A stretch of 32,000 nt of DNA from Erysipelotrichaceae bacterium (GCA_963676105.1 OY781039.1:900001-932000), one strand, 5' to 3'; shown: positions 2,343-31,494, numbered from the stretch's first letter. Notes: a model not told the origin generated them from the letters alone. Numbers and translations are program-made.

Positions 2343-2382
2343 GAGTGAAAAAATAGTCATATTTTATGCTAGGATGTAAGTA

Positions 2383-3318: not shown

Positions 3319-3326
3319 GGAAAACA

Positions 3327-5867: not shown

Positions 5868-5881
5868 TTTATAATATTCTT

Positions 5882-8179: not shown

Positions 8180-8188
8180 GACTTAGCC
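8164..8188. terminator. Bidirectional hairpin shared by convergent YfhO-2 and glf
   Basis: GGCTAGGTCT (8164-8173) pairs with AGACTTAGCC (8179-8188) as a 10-bp stem with one G.U pair and loop ATTTA. A T-run follows on the minus strand (TTTTTAAATT) and a T-rich tract on the plus strand (TCATTTATTTTC). Both stop codons (TAA 8177-8179 on plus; TAA from 8176-8178 on minus) lie largely within the loop. Confidence 0.5.
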
Positions 8189-9348: not shown

Positions 9349-9374
9349 TTGTTAACCTCGACCACTATTAGTCT

Positions 9375-9406
9375 ATCATATCTTAACTTTTTGAATAAGA
9401 TATGAT
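9375..9406. promoter_or_regulatory. Perfect 11-bp inverted repeat (candidate operator) in the glf/ugd divergent spacer
   Basis: ATCATATCTTA (9375-9385) and TAAGATATGAT (9396-9406) are exact reverse complements separated by 10 nt (ACTTTTTGAA). The right arm abuts the extended -10 element of ugd. Confidence 0.45.
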
Positions 9407-9414
9407 GTTATAAT
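9406..9414 (+). promoter_or_regulatory. Extended -10 promoter element (TGTTATAAT) for ugd
   Basis: TG at 9406-9407 and TATAAT at 9409-9414. SD AAGGAG is at 9424-9429 and the ATG at 9439. No good -35. The core ATAATTAT is itself palindromic. Confidence 0.5.
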
Positions 9415-9438
9415 TATGGCGATAAGGAGTCTTTTTTT

Positions 9439-10728: not shown

Positions 10729-10730
10729 AA

Positions 10731-10753
10731 ACCCAGAAATTTTTCTGGGTTTT
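10731..10753. terminator. Bidirectional rho-independent terminator between ugd and the LCP gene
   Basis: The stem CCCAGAA (10732-10738) / TTCTGGG (10743-10749) has a 4-nt loop and can extend through flanking A/T pairs. T-runs follow it on both strands (TTTT on plus; TTTTTAT on minus). Confidence 0.7.
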
Positions 10754-13424
10754 AGTTAGGTTCTTCGTCGACACCACCAGTTCCTGCATCAGCAGTTTCT
10801 GCATCAGCAGTTATATTGATGGTTACTGTTGCGATATTTGATTCAGCAGTGCCATCGTTAGCTACAAAGGTAAAGCTGTCAGTTCCGGTATAACCGGCTG
10901 TTACAGTATATGTAAATAATCCATTAGGATTTAATACTAATGTCCCATGGGTAGGTTGTGTTTTAGCTGAATAAGTTAAAGTTTGACTTGCATCCACGTC
11001 CGTTGCGCTAACTTGACCTGTAAGAGTGATATCAGTATCTAACATTTCAACAGTTTTAGCACTCGCAACTGGAGCAGTATTTACAAATGGACCAATAGAT
11101 AAGACGACTCTGAGTGTTTCATTCGCAAACATAGTAGTGTTTTGTGTAACTAATTTATCGTTATAGTAAATTGATACAATTTCATCTTTTACATGTGTAG
11201 TTGAATAACTAGTTTCATACTCATAACTTACACTATTATATAAATGTTCTTTAACCCATGTTTCAAAGTCAGTTTTTAGCCAAGTATCTTCACTATTAAA
11301 TATAAGTTCATATGGAATTTCTTCATATGGATAATCCGCTGTATAAATCGTAAGAGAACTTACACCAACCTGTGATAATTTTGTATAGGCAGATTCTTTT
11401 TGAGAACCAATTTTACCAATATTTGAAGTACTGTAACCTGCATCACCCTCTCTAAGATAGACAATATTGATAGGGAAATTATTTGCGCTTGACCATGAAT
11501 TAGCTTGAGCTATAGTCATGCCTGTAAAGTCAGGAACAATGTATGCACATTGAGGATCACTTCTGTTTTCTACAATAGCACAATCGAGTTCATGTTTAAT
11601 AACACCCACTGTTAATGATGAGAAGTTTTCAGTTTTAATTCCATAACGAACACTTTGGGAAATGATTCGATTATAAAGATAATTTTCACTATAACCATCT
11701 TCACCTGGCCAAATCTCGTCATAAGTCACATTAATCCATGAACGACTTGCTGCCCAAGATTGAACATCACTTAAGGTCCAAATGTTTGTACTACTTGTCA
11801 TGCTAGGCATAAAATCAGGTAGTTTTTCATGAACTTGAGGTTCATCGTACCATTCAATAATGTAGTCAGGTGTCGCGTATGGCGATTCAATATTAAAACT
11901 AAATATCTTTTGATCATTGATTTGATAATCAATCATTAAGTTTTGATAAATAAGATTCTTATTAAATTCAATTGAGCCTTCCCAAGCTTTATAGATAGAC
12001 AAAGGTAGTTGGAAAGTATCTGAATACATCCAGGAAAAATAACCAGTCACACGAGAACTCTTCATTTGGAGTAAATATTGTGAGTCAATAGTTGTGCTAC
12101 TCATTTGCTTTATTAAAAATTGTCCTAATTGGGTTAAATCATTCAAAGAAATATTTGTTTTAATATTACTTCCGGCTGCATCAACAACATTTAATAATGT
12201 TGTAATATCTTTTGTTTCCATAATTTTGGCAATTATTGCTTCAATAACTTGTTGTTGATGTTCTTGACGATCTAAATCACCATTTGGCATGGCATGTCTT
12301 TCACGGGCAAATGCTAAAGTTTGAAGTCCATCCATAACTTGCCAACCTTCATCAACCCAAACAGTAAAATGTCCACGCTCACTACTTGCGTCTTGACCCA
12401 CAAATTCAACAGGTGAATAAAGATATAAACCACCTAAGGCATCAACGATATCAACAATAGCTTGGAAGTTAACTTCAGCAAAATAATCTATATCAACATC
12501 TAAGAAATTAGAAACAGTGTCAATGGTACATTGGCGCGAAACAGACCTAGCATGGGTGATTTTATCCGAAGCTTGATCAGTATAACATGCGATAGGTGCA
12601 TAAGTATCACGCGCAATACTTGTCATCGTAGCTGTCATAGTACGTGGATTAAAGGTTGCGAGAATCAAAGTGTCACTTAAACCATCCGCATTACCAATTA
12701 ATAAAACAGTAAATGGTTCTGAAGTGATATTTTTATCGGACGCAACTTGACCTTCAATCGCAACTTCAGTTGTAAAACTATAAAAAGCTGTTGTTAAATC
12801 TAAGTATTCTTCATAGCCTTCATTCCCAATAAACATTGAATAATAAGCTTCAGGTAAAGAAGCAACATCAATTTCATTATTAAATAAGGCTAACAACATA
12901 TCATTATAAGTTGGATATTCTACATAATTCACATTAATATTTTGATCAGTTAATAGTTGAGTTGGTAGTACATTCCCTTCTTGGAATTCTGTACTATTAA
13001 TAATCCCAACATTCTTATTTTCAATATCACTTAATGAAGTATATGCATCAGTATCATAGGCAACAAAACTAGTTGTTATATCTTCATATTGTGTTTTCGT
13101 TGTATCAACAATCGCACCACTGATTGATGAATGAAGGCGTATAACATAATAATTCGCAAAGCCTACAAATAATAGCAATAATGCTGCGAATATAATACTT
13201 GGGTAACGCAGTTTATTATGATCTTTTGAGGCTAAATCTAAAAATGCAGAAAGAGCATTTAAAAGAATGAGTATTACTATACCTATGCTAAATAAAACAA
13301 CACTTAGTCCAATATAGCTATATATATTAAATAATAGAAAAATAGATAATGCGATTGTTGCTATAGATACCCAAGTATTGATGTTAAAAAGACTTGGATG
13401 GAAATTAAATTTTTGTTTTTTCAT
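10752..13424 (-). CDS. Large multidomain LytR-CpsA-Psr (LCP) family glycopolymer-to-peptidoglycan ligase
   Basis: 890 aa with three N-terminal TM helices. The LCP core motifs are LLIGNADGLSDTLILATF, SIARDTY, DKITHA, NFQAIVDIVDALGG, LAFARERH and GDLDRQEHQQQV. Later come a PASTA-like segment (VPDFTGMTIAQANSW...GKIGSQ...LTIYTA, about nt 11335-11540) and a C-terminal Ig/cadherin-like segment (VSATDVDASQTLTYSAKTQPTHGTLVLNPNGLFTYTVTAGYTGTDSFTFVANDG). SD AGGAG lies upstream of ATG 13424. Confidence 0.85.
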   Translation of the reverse strand: MKKQKFNFHPSLFNINTWVSIATIALSIFLLFNIYSYIGLSVVLFSIGIVILILLNALSAFLDLASKDHNKLRYPSIIFAALLLLFVGFANYYVIRLHSSISGAIVDTTKTQYEDITTSFVAYDTDAYTSLSDIENKNVGIINSTEFQEGNVLPTQLLTDQNINVNYVEYPTYNDMLLALFNNEIDVASLPEAYYSMFIGNEGYEEYLDLTTAFYSFTTEVAIEGQVASDKNITSEPFTVLLIGNADGLSDTLILATFNPRTMTATMTSIARDTYAPIACYTDQASDKITHARSVSRQCTIDTVSNFLDVDIDYFAEVNFQAIVDIVDALGGLYLYSPVEFVGQDASSERGHFTVWVDEGWQVMDGLQTLAFARERHAMPNGDLDRQEHQQQVIEAIIAKIMETKDITTLLNVVDAAGSNIKTNISLNDLTQLGQFLIKQMSSTTIDSQYLLQMKSSRVTGYFSWMYSDTFQLPLSIYKAWEGSIEFNKNLIYQNLMIDYQINDQKIFSFNIESPYATPDYIIEWYDEPQVHEKLPDFMPSMTSSTNIWTLSDVQSWAASRSWINVTYDEIWPGEDGYSENYLYNRIISQSVRYGIKTENFSSLTVGVIKHELDCAIVENRSDPQCAYIVPDFTGMTIAQANSWSSANNFPINIVYLREGDAGYSTSNIGKIGSQKESAYTKLSQVGVSSLTIYTADYPYEEIPYELIFNSEDTWLKTDFETWVKEHLYNSVSYEYETSYSTTHVKDEIVSIYYNDKLVTQNTTMFANETLRVVLSIGPFVNTAPVASAKTVEMLDTDITLTGQVSATDVDASQTLTYSAKTQPTHGTLVLNPNGLFTYTVTAGYTGTDSFTFVANDGTAESNIATVTINITADAETADAGTGGVDEEPN

Positions 13425-13434
13425 CCTAACACTC

Positions 13435-14070
13435 CTACTCTAAGTAATATCGATATATTTCATATCGACCATCTCTATTTATTACACTAAAATATCCTTG
13501 TGTTTGATACTCAGAGTTATCAAATTCATCATTTGGTAAATATGTCCATTTTGCAGCAACATAATAACTCATGTACTCAACACCATCTATTTCATATTTT
13601 TTTTCGAAATCAACATATTTTATAGTTACTGAATCAACCTGTAATAGATTCTCAGATCCGTAAGTGTCTTGATAGTAACTTAAATCTTTATAAAAGAAAG
13701 CTTTTGCCTCAGTTTGAATATAAAGTGTATTCGGTGCATACACATATTGAAGCCCACCCACATCATAACTACCTAGCTTATTGGTCCATGTATAAAAACT
13801 CGCAATGAAATTTTCTACAACAATGGCTGCTTTCTCAGATCCAGTTGCCTCTGCGCTGTTTAAAGTTTCTGATAATTCGGCAAATAATTCTTTTTGATAA
13901 TCAGTAGCGTTTTTGGGTTGAGTATAAATACCCCCTCCATCAATCACAATGGTTTCCACAGAATCTGAAACTGTTGCGAAATAATAAAAAACACCACTAA
14001 AAGTCACCAAAAGTGCTAGTGTGATATAAATTGTTATCATTTCGTATTTTCTATATATAATATGCCACAT
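13435..14070 (-). CDS. Hypothetical membrane-anchored extracytoplasmic protein
   Basis: 211 aa with a single N-terminal hydrophobic helix (ITIYITLALLVTFSGVFYYF) followed by a soluble Tyr-rich domain. SD AAAGGA lies 7 nt upstream of ATG 14070. I recognise no family motif. Confidence 0.6.
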   Translation of the reverse strand: MWHIIYRKYEMITIYITLALLVTFSGVFYYFATVSDSVETIVIDGGGIYTQPKNATDYQKELFAELSETLNSAEATGSEKAAIVVENFIASFYTWTNKLGSYDVGGLQYVYAPNTLYIQTEAKAFFYKDLSYYQDTYGSENLLQVDSVTIKYVDFEKKYEIDGVEYMSYYVAAKWTYLPNDEFDNSEYQTQGYFSVINRDGRYEIYRYYLE

Positions 14071-14151
14071 AAAGTAGTCCTTTCATATAATACCAATAAC
14101 TAATAACAAAGAAAAGTGACAAAAGTATGAACCTCACTGATAATATGCTTT

Positions 14152-16248
14152 TTACCAATAAAATTGATAAATCATATAAGATTCATTTTCATATATCTGT
14201 GTCGCACAATCTCTAACTTTAAAATATACCGGAATAACTTCCCCTTTTTCATCCACAAAGTACTGTTCTTTACTTACTACAACAAAATCAATCTTTTCTG
14301 AAATTAGATAATCACATGTCTGACTATAGTTAATTTTTGAATCAAAGATTTCTTGTTCTATATAGTCTTTATTTAAAAATATTTTAAATAATTCAAGGAT
14401 GTTACCACTAAGTTTATCTGAATCATCAATATTATTGATAGTATATTTATTAATTGATCGAATGCTATTATTTGAAATAGGAGTAACAACATAAGGAACA
14501 TAAACCCTTACAGATTCAATTTGAGATATCACTTTTGCTTCTTGATAGTTTTCTAATATTATTTTAGATTTTAAAATCTTTAAAGTTTCAATTTCATCCG
14601 GATATAAGCGAAGTATTGAATCATAATTTTCACTTGGTATAAAAGAAGTATGATAATAATTTTGACTATATGAAATCGCACCAGGTATCATCCAGGCAAT
14701 AATAGAAAATAGTATTCCATTTCTAAACCAAACATAGCTGATTTGATTAATCATGAAACTAAAAAACAAAATAATTGTAAATGGATTAAAAATGATTTCA
14801 AAACTTCGATAATAAACAACACTAAATAAATATTTTTCGACTAACATGCTTGAAATTGGGTTAATAAATAAAATAATTATAATTAGTAACAATAGAATAA
14901 AAGCTGATTTATTTCTTAATAAAAATGTAATAAGTGAAATGAATAATATAAAATTAATCAAGATATATGTACTATTAGAATAATTAAAATAATACCATAC
15001 CATGTCGTAAGCTCGATGGTCATATAAGAAATCATGTGTCAATTGATACCCACTAAAAAATAAGTAAAAAGCAATTACTATAACTATGCCTGGAATCATT
15101 ATTTTCATAATATGTGCAATATTATGAATAAATTTTTCTCTTTGTGTAAATTTCTTATAATACATAAATAATAGAAAACTATAAAAGATTAATAATCCTA
15201 TCAAAATCATTAGAAAAAGTAGTCTATTATTTGAGCCTTGATAGAATAATACAAAAAGAGAGCTCGGAATCGTCAACCAAATTATAGTTTCAAGAATAAC
15301 ATCTGAATTTTTTATTAAGTGAAATATTAATATAAAAGCAGATGTAATAATAATAATTCCTAAAGGAAATCCAGAAGAGCTAACTGAAATCAAAGCAGAA
15401 GATGTAAACATCATTAAGACTAAATTACCAATCTCATGTTTTTCATTAACAAAATATTGATACCACTCAAACATTAATAATGCGACTATGAATGGTCGAT
15501 AAGTATTTCCAAAAAACGCAAAGACACTGTTAAAGTAAATAAACGGAAAATAAGCTAATAATAGAATAAACAAAAAGACTTTTACACCATGATTCTTGAT
15601 TTTTAAACTAAATACAAGCCCAAGTACTGTAGTAATTTCTAATAAATAAAATAATGCACTAGTAATCCAGAAATATGCTTGCGTAAATAATCCATATGTA
15701 GAATCAGAAAAGAAGCCCATTAATTTATCAAAAACTAAAATTAGTAGAGCTGAAAATGAATAAAAAGACTGATAGTCATAAGTTCTCATTATTGTGTCAA
15801 TAGATAATCCTGTTCCATAATCCACATATGAAAAAGTTTGAGAATAAGCTAATTGCAAAGCCATTGACAAATAGTGATAGGTATCAAAACTGTTCTGCCC
15901 TAAAGTTCTATTTGATGATACTACAACTAATAAAAAAACATACATCAAAGATATACTTAAACCAATTATCATTTTCAGTTTTAATAATGATTTTATGCTT
16001 CCAATTATATGTAAAGAGCTTAAAACGATAAAAATGAGGCCAATAAGTATGAAATAAATACCGCTTGGCACTTGAAAATACACTGTAAAATAATAGATAA
16101 ATTGTATTAAACCTAAATAGACAATGATCCCAACAGGTATATATAAAAATGTATTTAATTTTAATTTTAATCTTTTATTAAAACCAAAGCCAATGGAGTA
16201 AAAGCCAATGAAACTAGTTAAAGTGAGAATTATTAAAATCAAAATCAT
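14152..16248 (-). CDS. Unassigned 698-aa polytopic membrane protein with a C-terminal soluble domain; GT-C-like topology (function unknown)
   Basis: Roughly 14 or more hydrophobic helices span aa 1-530, followed by a hydrophilic tail of about 160 aa. The start overlaps the YfhO-3 stop in an ATGA (16245-16248). It lacks the YfhO C-terminal signature and I recognise no catalytic motif. Confidence 0.7.
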   Translation of the reverse strand: MILILIILTLTSFIGFYSIGFGFNKRLKLKLNTFLYIPVGIIVYLGLIQFIYYFTVYFQVPSGIYFILIGLIFIVLSSLHIIGSIKSLLKLKMIIGLSISLMYVFLLVVVSSNRTLGQNSFDTYHYLSMALQLAYSQTFSYVDYGTGLSIDTIMRTYDYQSFYSFSALLILVFDKLMGFFSDSTYGLFTQAYFWITSALFYLLEITTVLGLVFSLKIKNHGVKVFLFILLLAYFPFIYFNSVFAFFGNTYRPFIVALLMFEWYQYFVNEKHEIGNLVLMMFTSSALISVSSSGFPLGIIIITSAFILIFHLIKNSDVILETIIWLTIPSSLFVLFYQGSNNRLLFLMILIGLLIFYSFLLFMYYKKFTQREKFIHNIAHIMKIMIPGIVIVIAFYLFFSGYQLTHDFLYDHRAYDMVWYYFNYSNSTYILINFILFISLITFLLRNKSAFILLLLIIIILFINPISSMLVEKYLFSVVYYRSFEIIFNPFTIILFFSFMINQISYVWFRNGILFSIIAWMIPGAISYSQNYYHTSFIPSENYDSILRLYPDEIETLKILKSKIILENYQEAKVISQIESVRVYVPYVVTPISNNSIRSINKYTINNIDDSDKLSGNILELFKIFLNKDYIEQEIFDSKINYSQTCDYLISEKIDFVVVSKEQYFVDEKGEVIPVYFKVRDCATQIYENESYMIYQFYW

Positions 16249-18737
16249 GTCTGCTTCCTCTTAATAAAGTAGTAAATACATGTAATCATAAAACTAATAA
16301 CGGAAATAATAATCCCTTCCTTTAAGAAAGGCGGTACATAAGTAAAACTAATAGTATGCTTTCCTTTATCTAGATAAAAACCTAAGAAACCTTCATTTAC
16401 CACAACTGTTTCAATTGATTCGCCATTATCCTTAATATTCCAGCCTAAATCGTAAGGAATATTTGTAAAAACTATTTCTTTAGAGTTACTTATTTGAATA
16501 TCAGCAGTAATTTTATCATTTTCATTTATGATATTCTCAAATTGATTAAAATTATGTACTTGGTTATTTAAAGAATCGATATACGAATTTTTAACATAAT
16601 AGACTGTAATAGGTGTATAGGCATAGCTAGTATATTGATTGTTACAGTAGAAATAGATCTTATCTGTATTTAAGTAAACAGGTGCTTTGGCGTAGCCATA
16701 TTCTGTAAATTCAATTTGTTGAAAGATTTCATTATTTTCATAATAGTCAAGTAAACAATGTGTATATGGATCAGTATGACTATATTCAATTATTAAATAA
16801 CCTGGTTCATCAAAACTTAAATTAACCCCTGCATTAATTAGATTAGCTCCAATTACTTCAGGATATGATATCTCAAAGCTTGATGTTCCGTTCTCTGTAA
16901 ACACACCTTGATACATCGCAAAATCCATTTCAAAGGAATTAATCGAATTAATATAAGAATTATTAAATTCAACATCAGTGGCAAACCCTAATTCAATTGT
17001 ATTTGGATTAATATACCCAGTAGTGCTTTCAATAAAACCATACGGAAGATTAGCTTCGCTTCCAAGGTAATATTTAGCACCTAATAAGTTTTTCGCAAGC
17101 TCTTTCGAATATGTATACTCTAGTTTTCTAAATGGCATAAAGCGATTTGTATAATAACTTTGTATTTGTGCACTGTAGGAACTGGAGTACATTAAAAATC
17201 CTGGGTAATTTTTCGCAACTGGTTCAGTTGTTATGCCATCTTCTACATCAATTCGATAAAAGCTATAATCAGATTCTAAAATTGTTTGAACATCCACGCC
17301 ATCAAACATCGATGGTAAAAACACTACATTTTCTGAAGATATAAAATTTGGACTACCATTATGATAAAACCTCATGTTAAATGCGTAATAGCCTTCAGAT
17401 ATTAAAAGCAAGCTCAAAACAATTAGTGAAAATTTATTCTGTTTTTGACTAAACAACAAATGATAGGCAATCACCCATAAGATAAAAAACACAACATGAT
17501 ATAAAACTCTCTGTGATAAATCTTGAGTATAGTAGTTTTTAGTATAAGTAATACCGGCAATCACAATAATCGTAAAAATCCAAAATATTGCATTAATTAT
17601 CCAATCTTTATTACTTAATTGAAATCGATTACTTAAACCATATACAGCCACTAATGCATTAACAAATACAATCATAAATGGCCAACGAGCATCATAGTTC
17701 CCATTAAACAAAGTATAAAAAAATGGAATAAACAACATTGAATACATTAATAAGGAAAAGATTAATAAACTTTTCTTATATTGATATTTTGATTTCACAG
17801 CTGGATACAAAGCTACAATAAAAATCACAAAGGAATAAATATAGGGTTTTATTAAATTTAAACCTGGTGCATAGTAACTGTAGAACAAATTATAATCATA
17901 ATCACTTGATACCACTGAGACAAAAGATGTTAGTATCGCAAAAATCGAACGAACATTTAATTGAGGCATAAAATTAAATAAGTCGACATTTTCAATTCTT
18001 GGATTAGTTGCCAAAATATAAATACTAGGCAATAAAATGAAAGCAGATAAACCAATACCAAGTAAATAAAGTAATGCAACAGGTAATGATTCATGGATGA
18101 ATTTTTTAAGTGTTTGAATTTTATTGAGTTGGATTAATCGGTATAAACTATAGAACACCAAAAACCAACTAAACATATAGAAATAATATGGATTTAGCGC
18201 TACTAAAAAGACAACTGAAAAACTAAAAAATAAATGTTTCCGATTTTCAAATACTTCTTCTACTAAATAAAGTAGTAATACAAACCCCATAAACGGATCG
18301 ATAAATGGAGCATAATGAATCCAGAGCATTATATAACCTGAAAAAGTAATGATAAAGCTGCCAATAATCAAAGAAACTTCATCATCAGTATGATGTTTTA
18401 ACCAGAGATATGAAAATACTGCAATAAAGATAAATCTTAAAGCATCAAACAATAAATTAATCTGCCCTAAATTTTCAACTGGGAATAAAGCCGCTAACCA
18501 AGTGAATGGGGATCCCAAGGAAATAAATAAACCTGCAAAAACATTGCTTCCTAATCCTAAAGCTTGATTCCAAAGTGGTATATGACCTGATTGAATCCAC
18601 ACGACAAATTGATGTAAATGTGGCCATAATTGCTCTAGTTCATCACCCCAAAAAACCAGTAAACCCTGGTTGTTTAATAAAATAGGAAAATAAGCTAGTA
18701 CTAATACAGTAACAATTATTAATAATAATTTTTTCAT
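16245..18737 (-). CDS. YfhO-family polytopic membrane glycosyltransferase (GT-C), paralog 3
   Basis: 830 aa with an N-terminal VFWGDELEQLWP loop after TM1 and many TMs. The C-terminus is IPYDLGWNIKDNGESIETVVVNEGFLGFYLDKGKHTISFTYVPP plus a terminal TM. The start directly abuts the stop of the upstream GT2 (TAAATG). Confidence 0.85.
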   Translation of the reverse strand: MKKLLLIIVTVLVLAYFPILLNNQGLLVFWGDELEQLWPHLHQFVVWIQSGHIPLWNQALGLGSNVFAGLFISLGSPFTWLAALFPVENLGQINLLFDALRFIFIAVFSYLWLKHHTDDEVSLIIGSFIITFSGYIMLWIHYAPFIDPFMGFVLLLYLVEEVFENRKHLFFSFSVVFLVALNPYYFYMFSWFLVFYSLYRLIQLNKIQTLKKFIHESLPVALLYLLGIGLSAFILLPSIYILATNPRIENVDLFNFMPQLNVRSIFAILTSFVSVVSSDYDYNLFYSYYAPGLNLIKPYIYSFVIFIVALYPAVKSKYQYKKSLLIFSLLMYSMLFIPFFYTLFNGNYDARWPFMIVFVNALVAVYGLSNRFQLSNKDWIINAIFWIFTIIVIAGITYTKNYYTQDLSQRVLYHVVFFILWVIAYHLLFSQKQNKFSLIVLSLLLISEGYYAFNMRFYHNGSPNFISSENVVFLPSMFDGVDVQTILESDYSFYRIDVEDGITTEPVAKNYPGFLMYSSSYSAQIQSYYTNRFMPFRKLEYTYSKELAKNLLGAKYYLGSEANLPYGFIESTTGYINPNTIELGFATDVEFNNSYINSINSFEMDFAMYQGVFTENGTSSFEISYPEVIGANLINAGVNLSFDEPGYLIIEYSHTDPYTHCLLDYYENNEIFQQIEFTEYGYAKAPVYLNTDKIYFYCNNQYTSYAYTPITVYYVKNSYIDSLNNQVHNFNQFENIINENDKITADIQISNSKEIVFTNIPYDLGWNIKDNGESIETVVVNEGFLGFYLDKGKHTISFTYVPPFLKEGIIISVISFMITCIYYFIKRKQT

Positions 18738-19670
18738 TTAAAAGTTAATACGTTTTTCTTCAACAACTAAAGGTCTTTTTAATAACCTTGCATTGATGTT
18801 TAAAACATATTCCCCCAACATTCCAATAAAAAACAATTGGATTGATCCTAGTACAAATACACCTACTACAATTGCGGCTGTTCCAACAGGATAAGTATCC
18901 CAATTAAGTAGTTTCATGACTACTGTATAAGCACCAATTAAAAAGCTAACAAATGATAGAAAGAAGCCTAAAAGTGTCGCAATACGCATGGTTGATTTTG
19001 AATATGAAGTAATACCTAACATCGCTAAGTCATAAAGTTTAAAGAAATTAAACTTTGTTTCACCAAACTCGCGTTTAGCTTGTTCATAATATACATCAAC
19101 ACGTTTAAAACCTAATTCAGCCACCATACCTCTTAGATAAGGTTGCGGATCTTGAATGTGTTTTATCACATCAATGAATTCTCTTGAATATAAGGCAAAT
19201 CCATTAAAATGTTCTATTTGATTGACTTCAGATAAATGATGAATAATTTTATAGTATAGTTTACGGACTAAAAACATTAAGACGTTTTCTTTGCTTTTTT
19301 TAACAATACCGGTAACAACTTTTGCACCATTTTCCCATTCACTGATTAAATCTGGAATTCGTTGTGGTGGATCTTGCAAATCCGCAGCCATTAATATAAC
19401 CGCTTCACCTGGCGTTTGAGTTAAACCATAAAATTGTGACTTCACAAAACCAAAGTTCATCGCATTAAAAATAGCCAAGACATTCTTATCTTTTTTTGTT
19501 ATATCTTCAATGATGTTACGTGTGCCATCTGTAGAATCATTATCAATAAATAATATTTGTGTCTTATATTGGTTTTGATAATCTAAAAGCACTTCATTAA
19601 CTTGTGTGTATACATTGTAAATATTCTCTTCTTCATTGAAACAAGGAATACAAACACTTATTTGTTTCAT
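18738..19670 (-). CDS. GT2 polyprenyl-phosphate glycosyltransferase (GtrB/CsbB type)
   Basis: Motifs SVCIPCFNEEENI, IDNDSTDGT and AADLQDPP, plus a C-terminal TM pair (IATLLGFFLSFVSFLIGAY; AAIVVGVFVLGSIQLFFIGMLGEYV). It overlaps the epimerase gene in an ATGA at 19667-19670. Confidence 0.88.
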   Translation of the reverse strand: MKQISVCIPCFNEEENIYNVYTQVNEVLLDYQNQYKTQILFIDNDSTDGTRNIIEDITKKDKNVLAIFNAMNFGFVKSQFYGLTQTPGEAVILMAADLQDPPQRIPDLISEWENGAKVVTGIVKKSKENVLMFLVRKLYYKIIHHLSEVNQIEHFNGFALYSREFIDVIKHIQDPQPYLRGMVAELGFKRVDVYYEQAKREFGETKFNFFKLYDLAMLGITSYSKSTMRIATLLGFFLSFVSFLIGAYTVVMKLLNWDTYPVGTAAIVVGVFVLGSIQLFFIGMLGEYVLNINARLLKRPLVVEEKRINF

Positions 19671-20227
19671 GATTGTACCTTCTTTTTAAAATCAGAAAAA
19701 GTTTGTAAGTTCTTATCTTTTTCAGAGAGGATAATGTCTTCAACTAAATTTACAGGCCAATCAACGTTGATATCTTTATCATTCCATAAAATACCATCGT
19801 CATCTTCACCCACAAACACCTCATTACATTTATAAGAAACAATGGAATCCTCTAACACTAAATATCCATGACCAAAATGCTCAGGAATCAATAATTGATG
19901 ATTGTTTTCTGAGCTTAGTTCAAACGAGATATATTCACCAAATGTTTTTGACTCAGGTCTTAGATCAACTACGACATCAAATACTTTACCATTTACACAT
20001 CGAACTAGTTTAGCTTGTTCATGGGGAGTTTGAAAATGAATCGCACGAACGACACCTTTCTTAGAAATGGTATAAAAGACTTCTTTTAAATCATGATTTA
20101 TCCCATTTTGTTTAAATGTATCCACATTATAATCTTTTATAAAAGAACCTCTATCATCATCTGAAATAAAAGGTTTTATTAAAACAACACCTTCAAATCT
20201 TGTTTTTTCAAAACTAAACTTTTGCAT
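19667..20227 (-). CDS. RmlC-fold cupin sugar-nucleotide 3,5- (or 5-) epimerase, probably acting on a CDP-4-keto-6-deoxyhexose
   Basis: Cupin epimerase motifs RGSFIKDY, RAIHFQ, KLVRCVNGKVFDVVVDLR, LLIPEHFGHGY and YKC. The ORF track starts at a TTG (20230). I prefer ATG 20227, which has SD GGGGAGA about 6 nt upstream. Confidence 0.8.
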   Translation of the reverse strand: MQKFSFEKTRFEGVVLIKPFISDDDRGSFIKDYNVDTFKQNGINHDLKEVFYTISKKGVVRAIHFQTPHEQAKLVRCVNGKVFDVVVDLRPESKTFGEYISFELSSENNHQLLIPEHFGHGYLVLEDSIVSYKCNEVFVGEDDDGILWNDKDINVDWPVNLVEDIILSEKDKNLQTFSDFKKKVQS

Positions 20228-21137
20228 CAATGTTCTCCCCTATCCATCTATATGTTTTTAAAATACCTTCTTCAAATGAAACTAAAGGATTAAATCCTGT
20301 ATCATTTTTAAGCGTTTCGATACTAAAAAATCCTTGATCCAAATTAACACCTTTATACGGTATATCTCCAAAATGTGGTATAACATCAGTTTTTACAGTC
20401 GTAAAAATTGTCTCTAAATAATTCCTTAATGCCATCGCTTTACCACTACCAATTAAGTACGTCGTATTATTATGACCTTTTTCAGCTATCAATCTAAATG
20501 CTTCCGCAACATCATCAATATATATAAAGTCATAAATTTGAGTGCCTGCTGTAAAAGCACAATATTCATTTAGATAAATCTTTCTTAGAGTAGAGTTAAT
20601 CAAACGAGGTGAAAATTCGTAAGGGCCATAAGCATTTGTGATTTTTACCCAAACATGTTCAATATTTAACTCATTAGCTTTACTTTTACTAAATAGTTTT
20701 GCGCTTAGTTTTGCAGTTCCATAACTGTAGTTTTTGGGTAATGCTTTATTTTCTTTAGATAGTTCAAAACTTTCATCTTCCATAATACTCCCTACACCAA
20801 TAAATTTAGTACAACCAAGAGACTTAGCGACTTCTACTGCATCAATCGTACTTAAAATATTTGATAGTTGTATTTCCGTATTTAAACGTTTTTCTCCACT
20901 AATACCTTCCCAAGCAAAATGAAATAAAACGTCATATTGCTCTTCTATTGTTGAAGTCAAAGATTTGATATCCTTCACATCGCTATATAAAACTTTTATC
21001 TTTTCAATGGGTAATCTTGATATATCTGAATTTTCATTTCTTAAAACTACGGTTACTTCATAACCGTGATTTATTAAATTACTAACTACAGCAGACCCAA
21101 CAAAACCATTAGCACCTGTAATAATCGCTTTAGTCAT
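20214..21137 (-). CDS. NAD(P)-dependent SDR, probable nucleotide-sugar 4-ketoreductase (paratose/abequose-synthase or AscF-like)
   Basis: 307 aa with Rossmann motif ITGANGFVGS and catalytic YGTAKL (YxxxK). It overlaps rfbG by 8 nt and sits between the dehydratase and the epimerase. Confidence 0.75.
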   Translation of the reverse strand: MTKAIITGANGFVGSAVVSNLINHGYEVTVVLRNENSDISRLPIEKIKVLYSDVKDIKSLTSTIEEQYDVLFHFAWEGISGEKRLNTEIQLSNILSTIDAVEVAKSLGCTKFIGVGSIMEDESFELSKENKALPKNYSYGTAKLSAKLFSKSKANELNIEHVWVKITNAYGPYEFSPRLINSTLRKIYLNEYCAFTAGTQIYDFIYIDDVAEAFRLIAEKGHNNTTYLIGSGKAMALRNYLETIFTTVKTDVIPHFGDIPYKGVNLDQGFFSIETLKNDTGFNPLVSFEEGILKTYRWIGENIDAKV

Positions 21138-22182
21138 TAAAATACTCCTGAATCTGCTTGATTGTCATTTCTTTCATATTTCCTTTATTGTAAAAGGCTT
21201 TATACCATACAACACTTTGGTTGACTGCATCTTTAGCATCCCATATTGGTTCCCAACCTAAAGTAGATGTTATTTTGTCATGGTTAAGTTGTAATAAATT
21301 TGCTTCATGTACTGATTCTTTAGATACATTCTTCCAAGAAGCATCTTCACCCCAAAACTCACAAAACAGATCAACTAATTTACCTGTTTGTAAATTATCT
21401 GAATCATTTGGCCCAATATTATAAGCACTCGCAAGTGTATGATCATCATACTGTTTCATGGCTAAAATCAAGTAAGCTCTCAATGTTTCCAAAACATGTT
21501 GATAGGGTCTTGTTGAATGTGGATTACGAACAATTATAGTTTCTTTCATTGAAGATGCTTTTGCACAGTCTGGAATAATTCGATTTTTAGAAAAATCACC
21601 GCCTCCAATAACGTTTCCACTACGTGCAGTTGAAACAGGAATATCTAATTCATTTAAAAATGATTTGATATATGAACTTGTAACTAACTCACTACAGGAT
21701 TTACTGTTCGAATATGGATCATATCCATCTAATCGATCATCCTCTACATATGCTTGTTTTTGCTCGGTATTAAAATACACTTTATCCGTTGTTATATTGA
21801 CTACCGATTTAACAGACCTACAGTGTCTAACACATTCTAAAACATTAACGGTTCCCATCACATTGGTTTCATAAGTATAAACAGGTTTCTCATAACTATC
21901 CCTTACCAATGCTTGTGCCGCTAAATGAAACACAATTTCTGGTTGATGTGTATCAAAAACTTTTTGTAAATGTTCTAAATCACGCACGTCACCAATAATT
22001 GAAACCATTTGTTTTTCATTTTGTGATAACGCGAAAAAAGACGGTACATTACTAGCTTCCAAGGCATATCCAATGACAAGAGCACCTTGTTCAATCAAAA
22101 TACGTGATAACCACACCCCTTTAAACCCAGTATGTCCTGTAATAAGGACTTTTTTACCTTTATAAAAACTTAAATCTAACAT
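21130..22182 (-). CDS. rfbG: CDP-glucose 4,6-dehydratase
   Basis: 350 aa with LITGHTGFKGVWLS and YSNSKS (YxxxK). Length and N-terminus are typical of RfbG/DdhB. The start abuts the rfbF stop. Confidence 0.88.
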   Translation of the reverse strand: MLDLSFYKGKKVLITGHTGFKGVWLSRILIEQGALVIGYALEASNVPSFFALSQNEKQMVSIIGDVRDLEHLQKVFDTHQPEIVFHLAAQALVRDSYEKPVYTYETNVMGTVNVLECVRHCRSVKSVVNITTDKVYFNTEQKQAYVEDDRLDGYDPYSNSKSCSELVTSSYIKSFLNELDIPVSTARSGNVIGGGDFSKNRIIPDCAKASSMKETIIVRNPHSTRPYQHVLETLRAYLILAMKQYDDHTLASAYNIGPNDSDNLQTGKLVDLFCEFWGEDASWKNVSKESVHEANLLQLNHDKITSTLGWEPIWDAKDAVNQSVVWYKAFYNKGNMKEMTIKQIQEYFND

Positions 22183-22956
22183 TTACCAAACTTTCCAAGG
22201 AGCCTTTTTATTCTCCCATAAATCATCTAAATAATTTTTATCACGCATAGTGTCCATACATTGCCAGAAGTCTGGATGCTGGTATGTAAATAATTTTCCT
22301 TTTTGTACAACTTGATCAAAAGGTTCTTTTTCTAAAATGGTTTTATCACCTTCTATTAATTCGAAGAATTCAGGTTCAATCACCATGAAACCACCATTAA
22401 TCCATCCACTATCACTCGCTTCTTTTTGTCTGAAACTTAAAACTTGATCATTTTCATTTGTATCAACAACACCAAAACGACCAGCCGGTTGGATAGTAGT
22501 AATGGTAACTAAGCTTTCTTTTTCATTATGAAATTTAATCAATTGATTTAAATCAACATTTGAAACGCCGTCACCATAAGTCAGCATAAATGGTTCATTG
22601 CCAATATAATCTTTAATACGTTTAACACGACCACCTGTCATTGTATCTAATCCAGTATCAACTAAAGTAACTTTCCAAGGCTCAGAAAAGTTATTATGAA
22701 TGGTCATTTTATTTTGAGATGAGAAATCAAAAGTCACATCACTTTGATGAAGATAGTAATTCGCAAAATACTCTTTTATCACAAAACCCTTATAACCTAA
22801 ACAAATCACAAAATCATTAAATCCATACTTCGAATAGTATTTCATAATATGCCATAAAATAGGTTTGTCCCCTATTTCAATCATGGGTTTTGGTTTTAAA
22901 TGACTTTCTTCAGATATACGCGTTCCATATCCACCAGCTAAAATAACGACTTTCAT
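22183..22956 (-). CDS. rfbF: Glucose-1-phosphate cytidylyltransferase
   Basis: MKVVILAGGYGTRISEESHLKPKPMIEIGDKPILWHIM is typical of RfbF/DdhA. The ORF track starts at 22971. I prefer ATG 22956 because the intervening sequence ATGAGGTGGACTGTT supplies SD GAGGTGG 6 nt upstream. Confidence 0.88.
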   Translation of the reverse strand: MKVVILAGGYGTRISEESHLKPKPMIEIGDKPILWHIMKYYSKYGFNDFVICLGYKGFVIKEYFANYYLHQSDVTFDFSSQNKMTIHNNFSEPWKVTLVDTGLDTMTGGRVKRIKDYIGNEPFMLTYGDGVSNVDLNQLIKFHNEKESLVTITTIQPAGRFGVVDTNENDQVLSFRQKEASDSGWINGGFMVIEPEFFELIEGDKTILEKEPFDQVVQKGKLFTYQHPDFWQCMDTMRDKNYLDDLWENKKAPWKVW

Positions 22957-22983
22957 AACAGTCCACCTCATCTATCTTCCCCT

Positions 22984-22989
22984 ATTATA
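22984..22989 (-). promoter_or_regulatory. Candidate -10 (TATAAT) for the rfbF operon
   Basis: The minus strand reads TGTTTAGTTTATAATAGGGG, with the TATAAT hexamer at 22989..22984. A weak -35-like TTTAAA lies 17 nt upstream. The SD and ATG (22956) follow. Confidence 0.35.
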
Positions 22990-23035
22990 AACTAAACATG
23001 ACGTTATTTAAAAAGGCTTTGTGATAAACTAAACA
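22987..23035 (+). repeat. 12-bp perfect direct repeat ATAAACTAAACA (two copies) in the divergent promoter spacer
   Basis: Copies lie at 22987-22998 and 23024-23035, 37 bp apart. Each is followed within 0-1 nt by an ATG. The first copy overlaps the minus-strand -10 and the second abuts the GT4 start. Confidence 0.6.
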
Positions 23036-23036
23036 C

Positions 23037-24221
23037 ATGAAAATATTGATTGTTTCTCAACATTTTTATCCTGAACCATTTCGTATCAATGATATTGCTT
23101 TTTCACTCGCAAAAATGGGACATGACATTACCGTTTTAACTGGTTTACCTAACTATCCAAGTGGTGTTATTGAAAAGGAATATAAATCTAAGAAAAAAAG
23201 AAAAGAAACGATTAATATCGTTCAAATTATTAGAACGCCTATTATCGCAAGAGGGTCTAGTTTATTAACAATGGGTCTTAATTATTTTTCCTTTGCGATT
23301 AACGCAAGTTTTAAAGCTTATTTCATAAAAAAGAAGTTTGATAACATCTTTGTTTTTCAAACAAGTCCCGTATCAATGGTCCTTCCTGGTATTGTTGTTA
23401 AGAATAAACAAAATATTCCTCTTTTTGTTTATTGTTTAGATCAATGGCCAATCAGTGTTACAACTGGTCCCATACCTGAAGGAAGTTTAATTTATAAACT
23501 ACTCTATTTTATAAGTACCTATCACTACAAAAAAGCAGATAAAATTCTATTGAGTTCAAAATCATTTGAAGACTACTTTCTAAAAGTTCTCAAACTACCT
23601 AAAGAAAAATACGGTTTAATTTATTGGCCATCTTATGCTGAAGATATTTACGGTGAAAGTATTTATCAAGAAAATGGAATATTTGATCTTGTGTTTGCAG
23701 GTAATGTTGGACCAGCACAATCTGTTGAAACTATTATAGAAGCTGCACATCTTCTAAAAGAGAAAACAGATATTCATTTTCATATCGTCGGCGATGGTTT
23801 AAGCTTAGAGAATTGTAAACAATTAGCTAATCAATATAATCTAAAAAACATTACATTCTATGGTCATCATCCTGTTGAAAAAATGAAGAAATATTATAAC
23901 TTAGCAGATGCTTTTTTAATCACTATGGTAGATAATCCAGTTGTCAACTCAACTCTACCAGCCAAGATTCAATCATATATGCGTGCAGGTAAACCCGTTT
24001 TCGGAGCAATTAATGGTGAAGTTATGCGTGTTGTAAACGAAGCGGATTGTGGCTGGGTATCACCATCTCTAGACGCACAAAAATTAAGTGAAAACATAGT
24101 TAATGCATTTAAAAATAAAGATTTATCCATTCAAAAGGGACAAAATGGACTAAACTATTACCATAAGCATTTTGATAAAAATAAACGTTTAAATCAACTG
24201 ATAGAAATTCTAGAAAGGTAA
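23037..24221 (+). CDS. GT4 glycosyltransferase, WbuB/WcaI-like (WbuB-type enzymes transfer L-FucNAc)
   Basis: The N-terminus is MKILIVSQHFYPEPFRINDIAFSLAKMGHDITVLTGLPNYPSG. C-terminal GT-B motifs are ADAFLITMV and LPAKIQSYMRAGKPVFG. It lies in the same strand block as fnlABC. Confidence 0.75.
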   Translation: MKILIVSQHFYPEPFRINDIAFSLAKMGHDITVLTGLPNYPSGVIEKEYKSKKKRKETINIVQIIRTPIIARGSSLLTMGLNYFSFAINASFKAYFIKKKFDNIFVFQTSPVSMVLPGIVVKNKQNIPLFVYCLDQWPISVTTGPIPEGSLIYKLLYFISTYHYKKADKILLSSKSFEDYFLKVLKLPKEKYGLIYWPSYAEDIYGESIYQENGIFDLVFAGNVGPAQSVETIIEAAHLLKEKTDIHFHIVGDGLSLENCKQLANQYNLKNITFYGHHPVEKMKKYYNLADAFLITMVDNPVVNSTLPAKIQSYMRAGKPVFGAINGEVMRVVNEADCGWVSPSLDAQKLSENIVNAFKNKDLSIQKGQNGLNYYHKHFDKNKRLNQLIEILER

Positions 24222-24229
24222 ATTTTAAA

Positions 24230-24565
24230 ATGCCAATAAAACTACAAATTGAAATTATCGGTTTTAGTCTTATCATGATTGCTGTAATTGTTAATCTTGT
24301 TCGAAACAATCGGATCACCATTAAATACTCTTTAATATGGATGTTTGCGATTCTTGGCATACTAGCTAGTGCGCTTATTCCAGGGGTGCTCCCATGGATT
24401 GCTACCCTTTTAGGATTTGAAACATTACCAAACTTTATCTTTACACTTATGATTGGAATTCTCATTGTTGTAAGTATGATGTTAACAATTATCGTTTCTG
24501 GTCAAAAGGATAAGATAAGAACTTTGACACAAGAGCTTTCACTCATGAAAGAAAAGATTAAATAA
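24230..24565 (+). CDS. DUF2304-type small membrane protein (GacJ-like partner of a short GT2)
   Basis: 111 aa with three to four hydrophobic helices and the motif LVRNNRITIKYSLIWMF after TM1, ending in a charged coiled tail. It sits immediately upstream of a TM-less GT2. Confidence 0.7.
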   Translation: MPIKLQIEIIGFSLIMIAVIVNLVRNNRITIKYSLIWMFAILGILASALIPGVLPWIATLLGFETLPNFIFTLMIGILIVVSMMLTIIVSGQKDKIRTLTQELSLMKEKIK

Positions 24566-24583
24566 ATCAGACAATTGGGGATT

Positions 24584-25291
24584 ATGAAAGACAAAATATT
24601 ATTTATTATTCCAGCGTACAACGAAGAAGAAAACATCCTTCAAACAGTACAATCCATCAACAACTACAATCCGAATTGGGATGTTTTAGTCATAAATGAT
24701 GGATCAAAAGATAATACATCTAGAGTGTGCAAAGAAAACAATATTAAAGTGATTGATTTAGTTATGAATCTAGGGATTGGTGGAGCTGTGCAAACAGGTT
24801 ATCTATATGCCTATCGAAATAACTATGATATTGCTATCCAGTTTGATGGAGATGGTCAACATGGCATCTCATCAGCTGAATCACTCATAAAGCCTATCAT
24901 CAATAATAAAGCTGACTTTGTAATTGGTTCAAGATTCATTGATAAAAGAAGAGATAATTTTCAATCATCTTTCTTAAGACGAATTGGAATAAGACTTATC
25001 TCTGCAACGATATGGTTATTATCAGGAAGACCAGTACTCGATCCTACATCAGGTTATAGAGCTGCTAATAAAAAAGTAATTGAATTCTTAGCTTATAATT
25101 ATCCAACAGAATTCCCTGAACCTGAATCAAATTTAATGTTGAATAAAATGAAATTTAGAATAAAAGAAGTTTTTGCGCAAATGCATGAAAGACAAGGTGG
25201 AACATCATCTATTCATACTTGGATTTCTGCCTATTATATGGTCAATGTTTTGTTTTCTTTATTCATTACGAGTTTAAGAAAATACGATTAA
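24584..25291 (+). CDS. Short GT2 (DPM1/GacI-like) polyprenyl-phosphate sugar synthase lacking C-terminal TM helices
   Basis: Motifs ILFIIPAYNEEENI, INDGSKDNT and QFDGDGQH (DXD-like) in about 235 aa. The ORF track begins at TTG 24575. I prefer ATG 24584, which is preceded by GGGG. Confidence 0.78.
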   Translation: MKDKILFIIPAYNEEENILQTVQSINNYNPNWDVLVINDGSKDNTSRVCKENNIKVIDLVMNLGIGGAVQTGYLYAYRNNYDIAIQFDGDGQHGISSAESLIKPIINNKADFVIGSRFIDKRRDNFQSSFLRRIGIRLISATIWLLSGRPVLDPTSGYRAANKKVIEFLAYNYPTEFPEPESNLMLNKMKFRIKEVFAQMHERQGGTSSIHTWISAYYMVNVLFSLFITSLRKYD

Positions 25292-31395: not shown

Positions 31396-31494
31396 AACCC
31401 CCCATTTATCTCCACAATAAAGATTGATCTTTCTTATAAACAATCTAATTATATAATCATAATCTATATATAACAAACTTATCTAATAACGAAT

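Follow-up and report, generated by a model that had tools for sequence, protein, structure and literature searches.

What becomes of a nucleotide sugar whose biosynthetic genes run directly into those of a membrane glycosylation system? The question is raised by a locus of an Erysipelotrichaceae bacterium (GCA_963676105.1, OY781039.1:900001-932000; the whole stretch analysed, 32 kb with about 30% G+C, is called the window below). Here seven consecutive open reading frames (ORFs) on the minus strand, spanning positions 14152-22971, combine genes of cytidine diphosphate (CDP)-hexose synthesis with those of a GtrB-like glycosyltransferase of family GT2, a YfhO enzyme and a further large membrane protein. 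Three-component glycosylation and YfhO enzymes have been described before, and so has CDP-6-deoxyhexose synthesis; what appears to be new is a link between CDP-sugars and an enzyme of the GtrB type. In a 2024 paper of the field, GtrB-type enzymes are stated to use uridine diphosphate (UDP)-sugar donors (PMC11127046). We consider it rather probable that one operon builds a CDP-6-deoxyhexose and passes the sugar to the outside of the cell via a lipid intermediate.

The ORFs and their junctions were read directly from the sequence. In operon order the genes encode a glucose-1-phosphate cytidylyltransferase, the maker of CDP-D-glucose (22183-22971); a CDP-glucose 4,6-dehydratase (21130-22182; TIGR02622 equivalog), whose product is CDP-4-keto-6-deoxy-D-glucose; an extended SDR of 307 amino acids (aa) with GxxGxxG and YxxxK motifs (20214-21137; PF01370), the putative C4-ketoreductase of CDP-4-keto-6-deoxyhexose; an RmlC-fold nucleoside diphosphate (NDP)-4-keto-6-deoxyhexose epimerase acting at C3 and/or C5 (19667-20230; PF00908, TIGR01221); a GtrB/ArnC-type GT2 of 310 aa (18738-19670), the predicted CDP-6-deoxyhexose:undecaprenyl-phosphate transferase; a YfhO-family GT-C glycosyltransferase of 830 aa (16245-18737; PF09586), the predicted extracytoplasmic transferase for the lipid-linked sugar; and a polytopic protein of 698 aa (14152-16248) from a small uncharacterised family, modelled as GT-C-like. 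Profile searches gave Pfam or NCBIfam matches for six of the seven, in agreement with the identities proposed in an earlier, sequence-only reading of the window, and none for the 698-aa protein.

All six junctions abut or overlap, at the coordinates which that reading had given. Stop and start codons are contiguous (TAA then ATG) between cytidylyltransferase and dehydratase (22182/22183, a gap of 0 nucleotides (nt)) and between GT2 and YfhO (18737/18738). The epimerase and GT2 genes share an ATGA at 19667-19670, as do the YfhO and 698-aa genes at 16245-16248. Dehydratase and SDR overlap by 8 nt (21130-21137), and SDR and epimerase by 14 nt (20214-20227), or by 17 nt if the epimerase starts at the TTG at 20230. 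Spacing of 0 nt or less is found at 6/6 junctions of the cluster and at about 2/11 other same-strand pairs in the window (Fisher p ~0.002, a rough figure). The ATGA overlap of epimerase and GT2 is also present in the relatives L001, L002, L082 and L166 (loci compared with the window carry L numbers). The tight packing is thus real and conserved; translational coupling across the junctions is putative. By contrast, the upstream limit of 22989 given earlier is not an ORF boundary. The earliest start codon of the cytidylyltransferase ORF is that at 22971. As the likely start we prefer the ATG at 22956, because it follows a good Shine-Dalgarno sequence (GAGGTGG, at a distance of 6 nt), coincides with the beginning of the match to TIGR02623 (residue 6) and gives the 257 aa of the homologues. 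The best sigma-70-like promoter match (TTTAAA-17-TATAAT, minus strand, 22984-23012), which is a match to the consensus only, lies upstream of this gene within a 65-nt divergent intergenic region shared with a GT4 gene at 23037. Promoter and terminator scans of the window returned counts at or below the shuffled expectation at 30% G+C and are uninformative, so the proposal that the seven genes form one operon is drawn from their spacing.

We now ask what kind of enzyme the GT2 is. Its best NCBIfam matches are PgfS, the top match, and ArnC, both under their cutoffs, and it matches PF00535 in Pfam. It comprises a GT-A domain, a juxtamembrane region and two C-terminal transmembrane (TM) helices, and aligns over its full length with GtrB sll0501 (residues 3-302 with 27-324; 151 bits); the ArnC match scores 106 bits. 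Relatives were taken from GTDB at one genome per species, giving 80 loci with flanks of up to 10 kb on each side; the flanks were searched for homologues of the window proteins, and all flanking ORFs were clustered. Apart from a distant dozen, these GT2s are 31-78% identical to that of the window. The closest (L001, 78%) is from an uncultured member of the Erysipelotrichaceae, and the others belong to Lachnospiraceae, Selenomonadales, Bacteroidota, Deferribacteraceae, Cyanobacteria, Chloroflexota, Acidobacteriota, Verrucomicrobiota, Planctomycetota, Spirochaetota, many Proteobacteria and Patescibacteria. Sixty-six loci together with the window GT2 make up a clade of 67 members, here called D-N-x-S after its active-site motif, which occurs in at least ten phyla (Bacillota, Bacteroidota, Deferribacterota, Cyanobacteria, Chloroflexota, Proteobacteria, Planctomycetota, Verrucomicrobiota, Spirochaetota and Patescibacteria). 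The operon of the window appears from these comparisons to be one member of a far larger uncharacterised clade.

A homologue of the cytidylyltransferase lies within 10 kb of the GT2 in 41/66 clade loci, and in 30/40 of those where both flanks are at least 8 kb. These neighbours are 38-71% identical to the window enzyme, and a homologue of the CDP-glucose dehydratase is frequently nearby as well. None of the most distant dozen GT2s (about 30% identity) lies near such a gene. For canonical 'DDGS' GT2 loci from the same scan, a small control, the count is 0/12 (0/6 with full flanks, for which Fisher p = 8.5e-4). For relatives of the window's other GtrB-like GT2 the figure is 0/80 (28 loci of at least 16 kb), this control having been drawn from a different collection, of metagenome contigs, many of them short. 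In a neighbour-joining tree all the cytidylyltransferase-linked GT2s fall into a single clade that excludes GtrB sll0501, the second GT2 of the window (gene at 2383) and the distant loci. Most clade loci lacking a cytidylyltransferase match still carry sugar genes for thiamine pyrophosphate (TPP)-dependent, NeuB-like or methyltransferase enzymes, and their operons may extend beyond the flank.

The arrangement of these operons bears on the fate of the sugar. The GT2 is typically the last gene, abutting one for an SDR, a NeuB-like protein, a TPP enzyme, RmlC or GtrA. A recurrent operon begins with the cytidylyltransferase (CT), the dehydratase (DH), an E1-like DegT protein of about 445 aa and an HMGL-like or NeuB-like enzyme; it continues with a YerE-like TPP enzyme of about 600 aa, an optional C-methyltransferase, FkbM or HAD protein, an SDR, sometimes GtrA, and then the GT2, frequently followed by a large polytopic protein. 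A flippase gene lies within three genes of the GT2 in 17/60 clade loci, and one is present also in L167 and L168; in several loci, such as L168, a GtrA gene lies inside the CDP-sugar operon, and GT-C genes come after the GT2. Four extra contexts, chosen from a protein search and not from the genome-contig scan, all have the cytidylyltransferase and dehydratase beside the GT2. These are Brachyspira pilosicoli (CT-DH-E1-SDR-GT2), a metagenome-assembled genome (MAG) of Clostridium beijerinckii (CT-DH-E1-GtrA-GT2), a Goldbacteria MAG (CT-DH-E1-GtrA-TPP-aldolase-HAD-methyltransferase-SDR-GT2, then three PMT_2 GT-C genes) and L166, a 364-kb metagenome contig with seven-gene synteny identical to that of the window. 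If the sugar carried on the lipid were not the one made as a CDP derivative, it would be difficult to account for a flippase gene that lies inside such an operon and for GT-C genes behind the GT2. The version with RmlC, SDR and YfhO found in the window is shared by the uncultured Erysipelotrichaceae-like loci L001, L082 and L166. L002, a short fragment, also has RmlC and SDR genes with the GT2, as does L004, from a Deferribacteraceae MAG, where E1, SDR, RmlC and a Glf-like mutase lie directly ahead of the GT2.

We note some variation in gene content within the clade. In most other phyla (among loci L003-L068, L165, L167 and L168) the GT2 ends operons that hold the CDP-glucose genes and an E1-like dehydrase or aminotransferase, together with C-methyltransferases, a YerE-like TPP enzyme and aldolases of NeuB-like, HMGL-like or HpcH type. 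Such genes would be expected to yield C-branched sugars, perhaps with an extended chain, like yersiniose or caryophyllose. The GT-C partners in these loci vary, being PMT_2, DUF7024-containing or unannotated polytopic proteins of 600-1000 aa. In L004 the gene that separates those of the RmlC-type protein and the GT2 encodes a Glf homologue (8856-10001; 44% identical to the mutase HS41.17 of Campylobacter jejuni), a hint that at this locus the lipid may carry a deoxy-hexofuranose.

Might the operon of the window nevertheless serve two unrelated functions? The CDP-6-deoxyhexose could go to a cytoplasmic Leloir glycosyltransferase (e.g. a GT4 enzyme encoded at 23037-24221 or 28557-29738) for a repeat unit, with the GT2, YfhO and 698-aa proteins adding a decoration of glucose or N-acetylglucosamine (GlcNAc) from a UDP-sugar, as do CsbB/YfhO or GtlA/GtlB. 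Known CDP-dideoxyhexoses are indeed used by cytoplasmic transferases, in the O-antigens of Salmonella and Yersinia. The window is packed with polysaccharide genes, a GT4 gene divergently adjoins the cytidylyltransferase gene in the window, L082 and L166, and the characterised GtrB-type enzymes all use UDP-sugars (guanosine diphosphate-mannose for DPMS) (PMC11127046). But such a division of labour would leave unexplained why the clade stands at the ends of CDP-sugar operons (41/66 loci against 0/12 and 0/80), why GtrA genes are embedded in those operons and why an Asp that contacts UDP is invariably replaced by Asn. Moreover the adjacent GT4 gene heads an opposite-strand operon with FnlA/B/C-like genes, so UDP-L-FucNAc is its more plausible donor. 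An explanation of this kind accounts for the window and not for the cross-phylum pattern, and we regard it as unlikely. We favour lipid loading of the CDP-sugar by the GT2, which the sequence-only reading had suggested and which we infer from strong comparative evidence, namely the clade linkage, the embedded GtrA genes and the Asn substitution.

That substitution is part of a distinctive active site. The metal ligands of GtrB are kept, D97 and Q99 of the window enzyme corresponding to GtrB D96 and Q98 (the D and Q of D-A-D-L-Q-D), as is the arginine for nucleotide or lipid phosphate (R200; GtrB R200, ArnC R205), and the three residues are conserved in 66-67/67 clade members. Where canonical enzymes have the motif [DN]-D-G-S the clade has D-N-x-S. 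N44 of the window enzyme aligns with ArnC D48, and this position is Asn in 67/67 clade members and in 120/120 of the closest database homologues, and Asp in 14/14 canonical sequences. As a possible reading, an Asn side chain could donate to cytosine N3 and accept from N4, and Asp would suit the N3-H of uracil. The side chain of ArnC D48 is hydrogen bonded to UDP (PMC12690121, the source used for the UDP contacts; little on uracil-contact residues was found in the GtrB papers or the ArnC preprint). R136, D174 and R180 are conserved specifically in the clade. The whole signature fits a changed donor nucleotide together with an enlarged or altered sugar pocket.

Other residues are lost. The first Asp of the DXD motif (GtrB D94, ArnC D100, DPMS D89) is present in all 14 canonical sequences, is replaced by A95 in the window enzyme and is A, V, C, P, F or Y in the clade. 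It has been proposed as the general catalytic base of polyprenyl-phosphate glycosyltransferases and described as conserved family-wide (PMC12690121), and the clade challenges its universality in the GtrB/ArnC family. The equivalent of GtrB D157 is G157 in the window, and Gly in 57/67 clade members and 113/120 closest homologues; the D157N mutant of GtrB is inactive (PMC4728340). The clade thus departs from GtrB and ArnC at three defining residues, so its mechanism should not be assumed to be GtrB-like, and its chemistry may differ from simple GtrB-like transfer.

The loss of the D94 and D157 equivalents could also mean that the GT2 loads CDP-glucose or the 4-keto intermediate, with tailoring of the sugar later, or that the clade catalyses some other reaction on a lipid-linked substrate. 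Modification of lipid-linked sugars after transfer is known, as in the deformylation of undecaprenyl phosphate (Und-P)-Ara4FN and the conversions of decaprenyl-P-ribose to arabinose and of Und-P-Ribf to Xylf (PMC11127046). However, the RmlC-type protein and the SDR are soluble NDP-sugar enzymes with no membrane segments, the GT2 comes after the tailoring genes in almost all loci, and the clade has kept its metal ligands and its lipid-phosphate Arg. Early loading of this sort seems to us improbable, and we keep to loading of the finished CDP-6-deoxyhexose.

What sugar would be loaded? The protein sequences of the C. jejuni HS:41 pathway were taken from the supplement of Simons, Narindoshvili & Raushel 2025 (PMC12369002) and compared with the window. 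The cytidylyltransferase scores 404 bits against TIGR02623 (cutoff 300; residues 6-262) and is 54% identical over its full length to the biochemically characterised HS41.21. The dehydratase scores 435 bits against TIGR02622 (cutoff 278) and is 41% identical to the characterised HS41.20. With such identities the first two steps of the pathway are secure. The epimerase matches PF00908 (196 bits) and TIGR01221 (193 bits, cutoff 156), gives 171 bits with the solved RmlC structure 1EP0 and is 36% identical to the CDP-specific epimerase HS41.19. Its similarity to dTDP-specific and to CDP-specific members of the family is comparable, and CDP as its nucleotide is suggested by operon context only. The SDR reached no NCBIfam equivalog in the profile search; its best solved relatives are UDP-Glc 4-epimerase (72 bits) and the reductase Rmd (52 bits). 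The same place in the operon is taken by orthologues (44-54% identity) in L001 and L004, and by an SDR of about 305-309 aa in L082 and L166.

We considered whether the SDR is the orthologue of the C. jejuni reductase HS41.18. With 26% identity over 250 aa (E = 3e-6) this was ruled out; a different SDR lineage would fill the C4 step, and we leave the sugar unnamed. The product is probably a CDP-6-deoxyhexose of the L series, and sugars of the 6-deoxy-L-altrose, L-rhamnose, 6-deoxy-L-talose or 6-deoxy-D-gulose type are possible. Epimerisation and C4 reduction are thus assigned from family membership, pathway logic and precedent. The precedent is HS:41 itself, where a cytidylyltransferase, a 4,6-dehydratase, a 3,5-epimerase and a C4-reductase have been shown enzymatically to produce a CDP-6-deoxyhexose without E1 or E3 (PMC12369002).

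The proposal that the pathway ends at a CDP-6-deoxyhexose, made in the sequence-only reading from the absence of genes for E1 (DdhC/RfbH, the PMP-dependent 3-dehydrase) and E3 (DdhD), is supported. Domain scans of the 32-kb window revealed no DegT/E1-like or TPP-enzyme ORF, and tblastn with two E1-like queries gave chance hits only; Pfam domain scans likewise revealed no E3-type or ferredoxin-reductase ORF in the window, no E3 query sequence having been run. One may ask whether E1 and E3 are encoded elsewhere and take the pathway on to a 3,6-dideoxyhexose, given that the window is 32 kb of a genome of about 1.96 Mb and that many relatives of the GT2 in other phyla are accompanied by an E1-like gene. 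Yet lineages that possess E1-like genes carry them inside the operon, and the four loci with RmlC, SDR and YfhO (the window, L001, L082 and L166) have none there. The DegT genes that do lie near L001, L082 and L166 are on the opposite strand in a different module and encode proteins of 373-383 aa. We therefore think a dideoxyhexose product very improbable. The chemistry of a pathway stopping at a CDP-6-deoxyhexose is already known.

On the far side of the membrane the sugar would be handled by GT-C enzymes. The YfhO protein matches PF09586 along nearly all of its length (217 bits, gathering threshold 28.5; residues 10-812 of 830), and its C-terminus resembles PgfM1 and PgfM2. Its G31-D32 is invariant across five YfhO sequences, and a YfhO gene has the same operon position in L001, L082 and L166. 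The 698-aa protein, without a Pfam or NCBIfam match, had been called an orphan; 17 homologues were found among 5.8 billion clusters, so it is rare and not an orphan. An AF2 model built from the homologue alignment (pLDDT 82.8, pTM 0.87) gave as top Foldseek matches in the PDB the oligosaccharyltransferase AglB (probability 1.0, TM-score 0.38-0.42), ALG12 and AftD. No solved structures other than those of GT-C enzymes gave a specific match, and the TM-scores were modest (0.29-0.42). We also considered that the protein might be a divergent YfhO paralogue, and dropped this idea; profile-profile comparison of its family with YfhO gave nothing significant, and there is no detectable sequence relation.

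Members of the 698-aa family adjoin a YfhO gene, a GtrB-like GT2 gene or a DUF2304+GT2 pair in L081, L163, L164 and L166. In L081 the homologue directly follows, and overlaps the end of, a DUF2304+GT2 pair (8936-12037), which we take to resemble the GacJ/GacI Und-P-GlcNAc synthase pair of Streptococcus pyogenes; the overlap suggests that the family can draw on different lipid-linked donors. In L163 the relative has an LCP gene as its neighbour and YfhO genes in the vicinity, and in L164 it has a YfhO gene on one side and flippase and ligase genes on the other. In L082 an Arn-like module separates the YfhO and 698-aa genes, making the latter a looser partner than the six upstream genes. With moderate confidence, from the model and these neighbourhoods, we take the 698-aa protein as a second GT-C-type transferase for the lipid-linked sugar. 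A separate protein of about 595-599 aa without a Pfam family adjoins the 698-aa family gene on the opposite strand in L001, L082, L163 and L166 (in L166 at 15506-17293, minus strand), followed in L082 and L166 by DegT and GT2 genes; this block is absent from the window.

The pathway that we envisage is as follows. Glucose 1-phosphate and CTP are converted to CDP-glucose, which is dehydrated to CDP-4-keto-6-deoxy-D-glucose; these two steps are secure by orthology. The RmlC-type enzyme would then epimerise C3 and/or C5, and the SDR would reduce C4 to give the CDP-6-deoxyhexose. At the inner face of the membrane the GT2 would, as comparative genomics indicates, move the sugar from CDP to undecaprenyl phosphate. 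A flippase not encoded in the window would take the lipid-linked sugar outward, and the YfhO and 698-aa proteins, going by family and fold, would each transfer it to a surface acceptor, which may be a wall polysaccharide, a teichoic acid or, as in Pgf of Streptococcus mutans, a protein.

Several observations weigh against this scheme, in addition to the altered active site and to the size and source of the controls. The RmlC-type gene also exceeds the dTDP-specific equivalog threshold, and the SDR is no orthologue of the characterised C. jejuni reductase. In a locus so dense with polysaccharide genes, adjacency alone is weak evidence, and the divergent GT4 gene adjoins that of the cytidylyltransferase in the window and in L082 and L166. 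No flippase gene (GtrA/GtcA, Wzx-like or an EamA pair) was found in the 32-kb window. Such a gene may be elsewhere in the genome, as is gtcA in Bacillus subtilis.

The operon can be set beside several known systems. It resembles the CDP-D-fucose/CDP-6-deoxy-L-altrose pathway of C. jejuni HS:41 (HS41.21-HS41.17; PMC12369002) in its four types of enzyme, in the lack of E1 and E3 and in a CDP-6-deoxyhexose product, which for the window is predicted. The reductases differ, and the stereochemistry of the sugar may therefore differ too. In C. jejuni the product is contracted to the furanose by a Glf-like mutase and then enters cytoplasmic capsule assembly, whereas the pathway genes of the window are in an operon with a polyprenyl-phosphate glycosyltransferase and GT-C enzymes. 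No mutase is encoded in the seven-gene operon, and the only Glf, 5 kb away, may be an ordinary UDP-Galp mutase. The sequence-only reading had held the whole arrangement to be uncharacterised. For the sugar chemistry this view is out of date, given the enzymatic demonstration in HS:41; for the coupling to a GT2 it stands, no paper having been found in the literature searched that joins CDP-glucose, cytidylyltransferase or 6-deoxy sugars with YfhO, GtrB, GtrA or GT-C enzymes. A Burkholderia pseudomallei match in the literature proved to be a gene table only and was rejected as a precedent.

The pairing of a GT2 having a GT-A domain and two TM helices with GT-C enzymes encoded beside it is that of the three-component systems, i.e. 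GtrA/GtrB/Gtr* (Shigella, Salmonella), CsbB/GtcA/YfhO (B. subtilis), GtlA/GtlB (Listeria), GacI/J/K/L (S. pyogenes) and PgfS/PgfM1/PgfM2 (S. mutans), the last of which also has one synthase with two GT-C genes. The known synthases take UDP-Glc, UDP-Gal or UDP-GlcNAc, whereas the window GT2 is tied to CDP-6-deoxyhexose genes and has no flippase gene in its locus; its clade is a distinct one, in which Asn replaces the UDP-contacting Asp and the first DXD Asp is missing. In the lipid A aminoarabinose system ArnC/ArnT, again, a GtrB-like polyprenyl-phosphate glycosyltransferase is encoded in an operon that makes its own unusual donor, with a GT-C enzyme as final transferase; there, however, UDP-L-Ara4FN serves as donor and lipid A of Gram-negative bacteria as acceptor, and the enzyme has a canonical DXD motif (100-DADLQN-105). 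The phosphoribosyl pyrophosphate-dependent pentofuranose three-component systems (Kelly et al. 2024, PMC11127046) and the synthesis of mycobacterial decaprenylphosphoryl arabinose likewise have a lipid-linked donor that does not come from a UDP-sugar, but the loading enzyme is an unrelated phosphoribosyltransferase and not a GT2, and the sugars are pentofuranoses. Finally, the CDP-3,6-dideoxyhexose and yersiniose pathways (DdhA-D, AscE/F, YerE/F) share their first two enzymes with the window, and elsewhere the GT2 clade follows E1-like, YerE-like TPP, aldolase-like and C-methyltransferase genes. The window itself is without E1-like, E3-type and TPP genes, and the known pathways feed cytoplasmic O-antigen transferases.

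A broader proposition is that the D-N-x-S enzymes form a large, cross-phylum class of CDP-sugar:polyprenyl-phosphate glycosyltransferases, with an Asp-to-Asn switch for cytidine and without the first DXD Asp and D157. They would provide a general route by which CDP-derived sugars (6-deoxy, 3,6-dideoxy and C-branched) reach surface polymers via YfhO, PMT_2, DUF7024-containing and other GT-C enzymes, the window being the Gram-positive, 6-deoxyhexose/YfhO version. We would put the chances of this at about even. Three-component systems are a common means of diversifying surface antigens after polymer synthesis, and a CDP-dependent branch, if it exists, would add rare deoxy and branched sugars to the extracytoplasmic repertoire. 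It would also give a role to many CDP-sugar operons that now lack an assignment, in bacteria of the gut, the rumen and the environment, the pathogen B. pilosicoli among them, and could offer glyco-engineering a route to display such sugars. The D-N-x-S signature is a simple annotation marker separating these enzymes from UDP-dependent GtrB, CsbB and ArnC homologues.

In L163, too, a three-component system may draw on a donor other than a UDP-sugar. At 12466-16239, genes for a DegT aminotransferase, an acetyltransferase and an FdtA-type isomerase, a set typical of dTDP-3-acetamido-3,6-dideoxyhexose synthesis, are followed directly by that for a 306-aa GtrB-like GT2, with YfhO genes on both sides. 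This GT2 keeps D-D-G-S and has lost the first DXD Asp (KTADLQE).

The operon lies in a large cell-wall glycopolymer locus, in which the window holds genes for an LtaS-like protein, a second GT2, a YfhO pair, Glf, Ugd, LCP, two GT4 enzymes and FnlA/B/C-like proteins. A second, separate three-component-like set occupies 483-8179 on the plus strand. It comprises an LtaS-like sulfatase-domain membrane protein (483-2342), a canonical GtrB-like GT2 with N-D-G-S and D-A-D motifs (2383-3318) and two tandem YfhO paralogues (3327-5867 and 5882-8179). The Glf homologue (8176-9348, minus strand) is 38% identical to the CDP-fucopyranose mutase HS41.17 and scores 325 bits with a solved UDP-Galp mutase, so that its substrate is ambiguous.

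Directly downstream of the operon, on the same strand, are genes for a 211-aa protein without a family (13435-14070) and for an LCP-family glycopolymer ligase of 890 aa (10752-13424; PF03816) with a Big_9/cadherin-like C-terminus and a weak PASTA match. The gaps are 81 nt and 10 nt, with no terminator-like site between, and the two genes, given here as context, may be co-transcribed with the operon. The same pair, of a 210-aa protein and an LCP protein, is also encoded nearby in L082 and L166, and L001 has a homologue of the 211-aa protein. On the other side of the operon, a small DUF2304 membrane protein and, after it, a short GT2 of 238 aa are encoded on the plus strand at 24230-25291, a pair that likewise resembles GacJ/GacI. 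At 30010-31476 on the minus strand is a 488-aa fusion of RmlC (residues 32-203) and RmlD (210-485), so that the locus has a separate dTDP-rhamnose-type epimerase and reductase besides the RmlC gene of the CDP operon. The start of the fusion ORF, a TTG at 31476, probably overextends its N-terminus.

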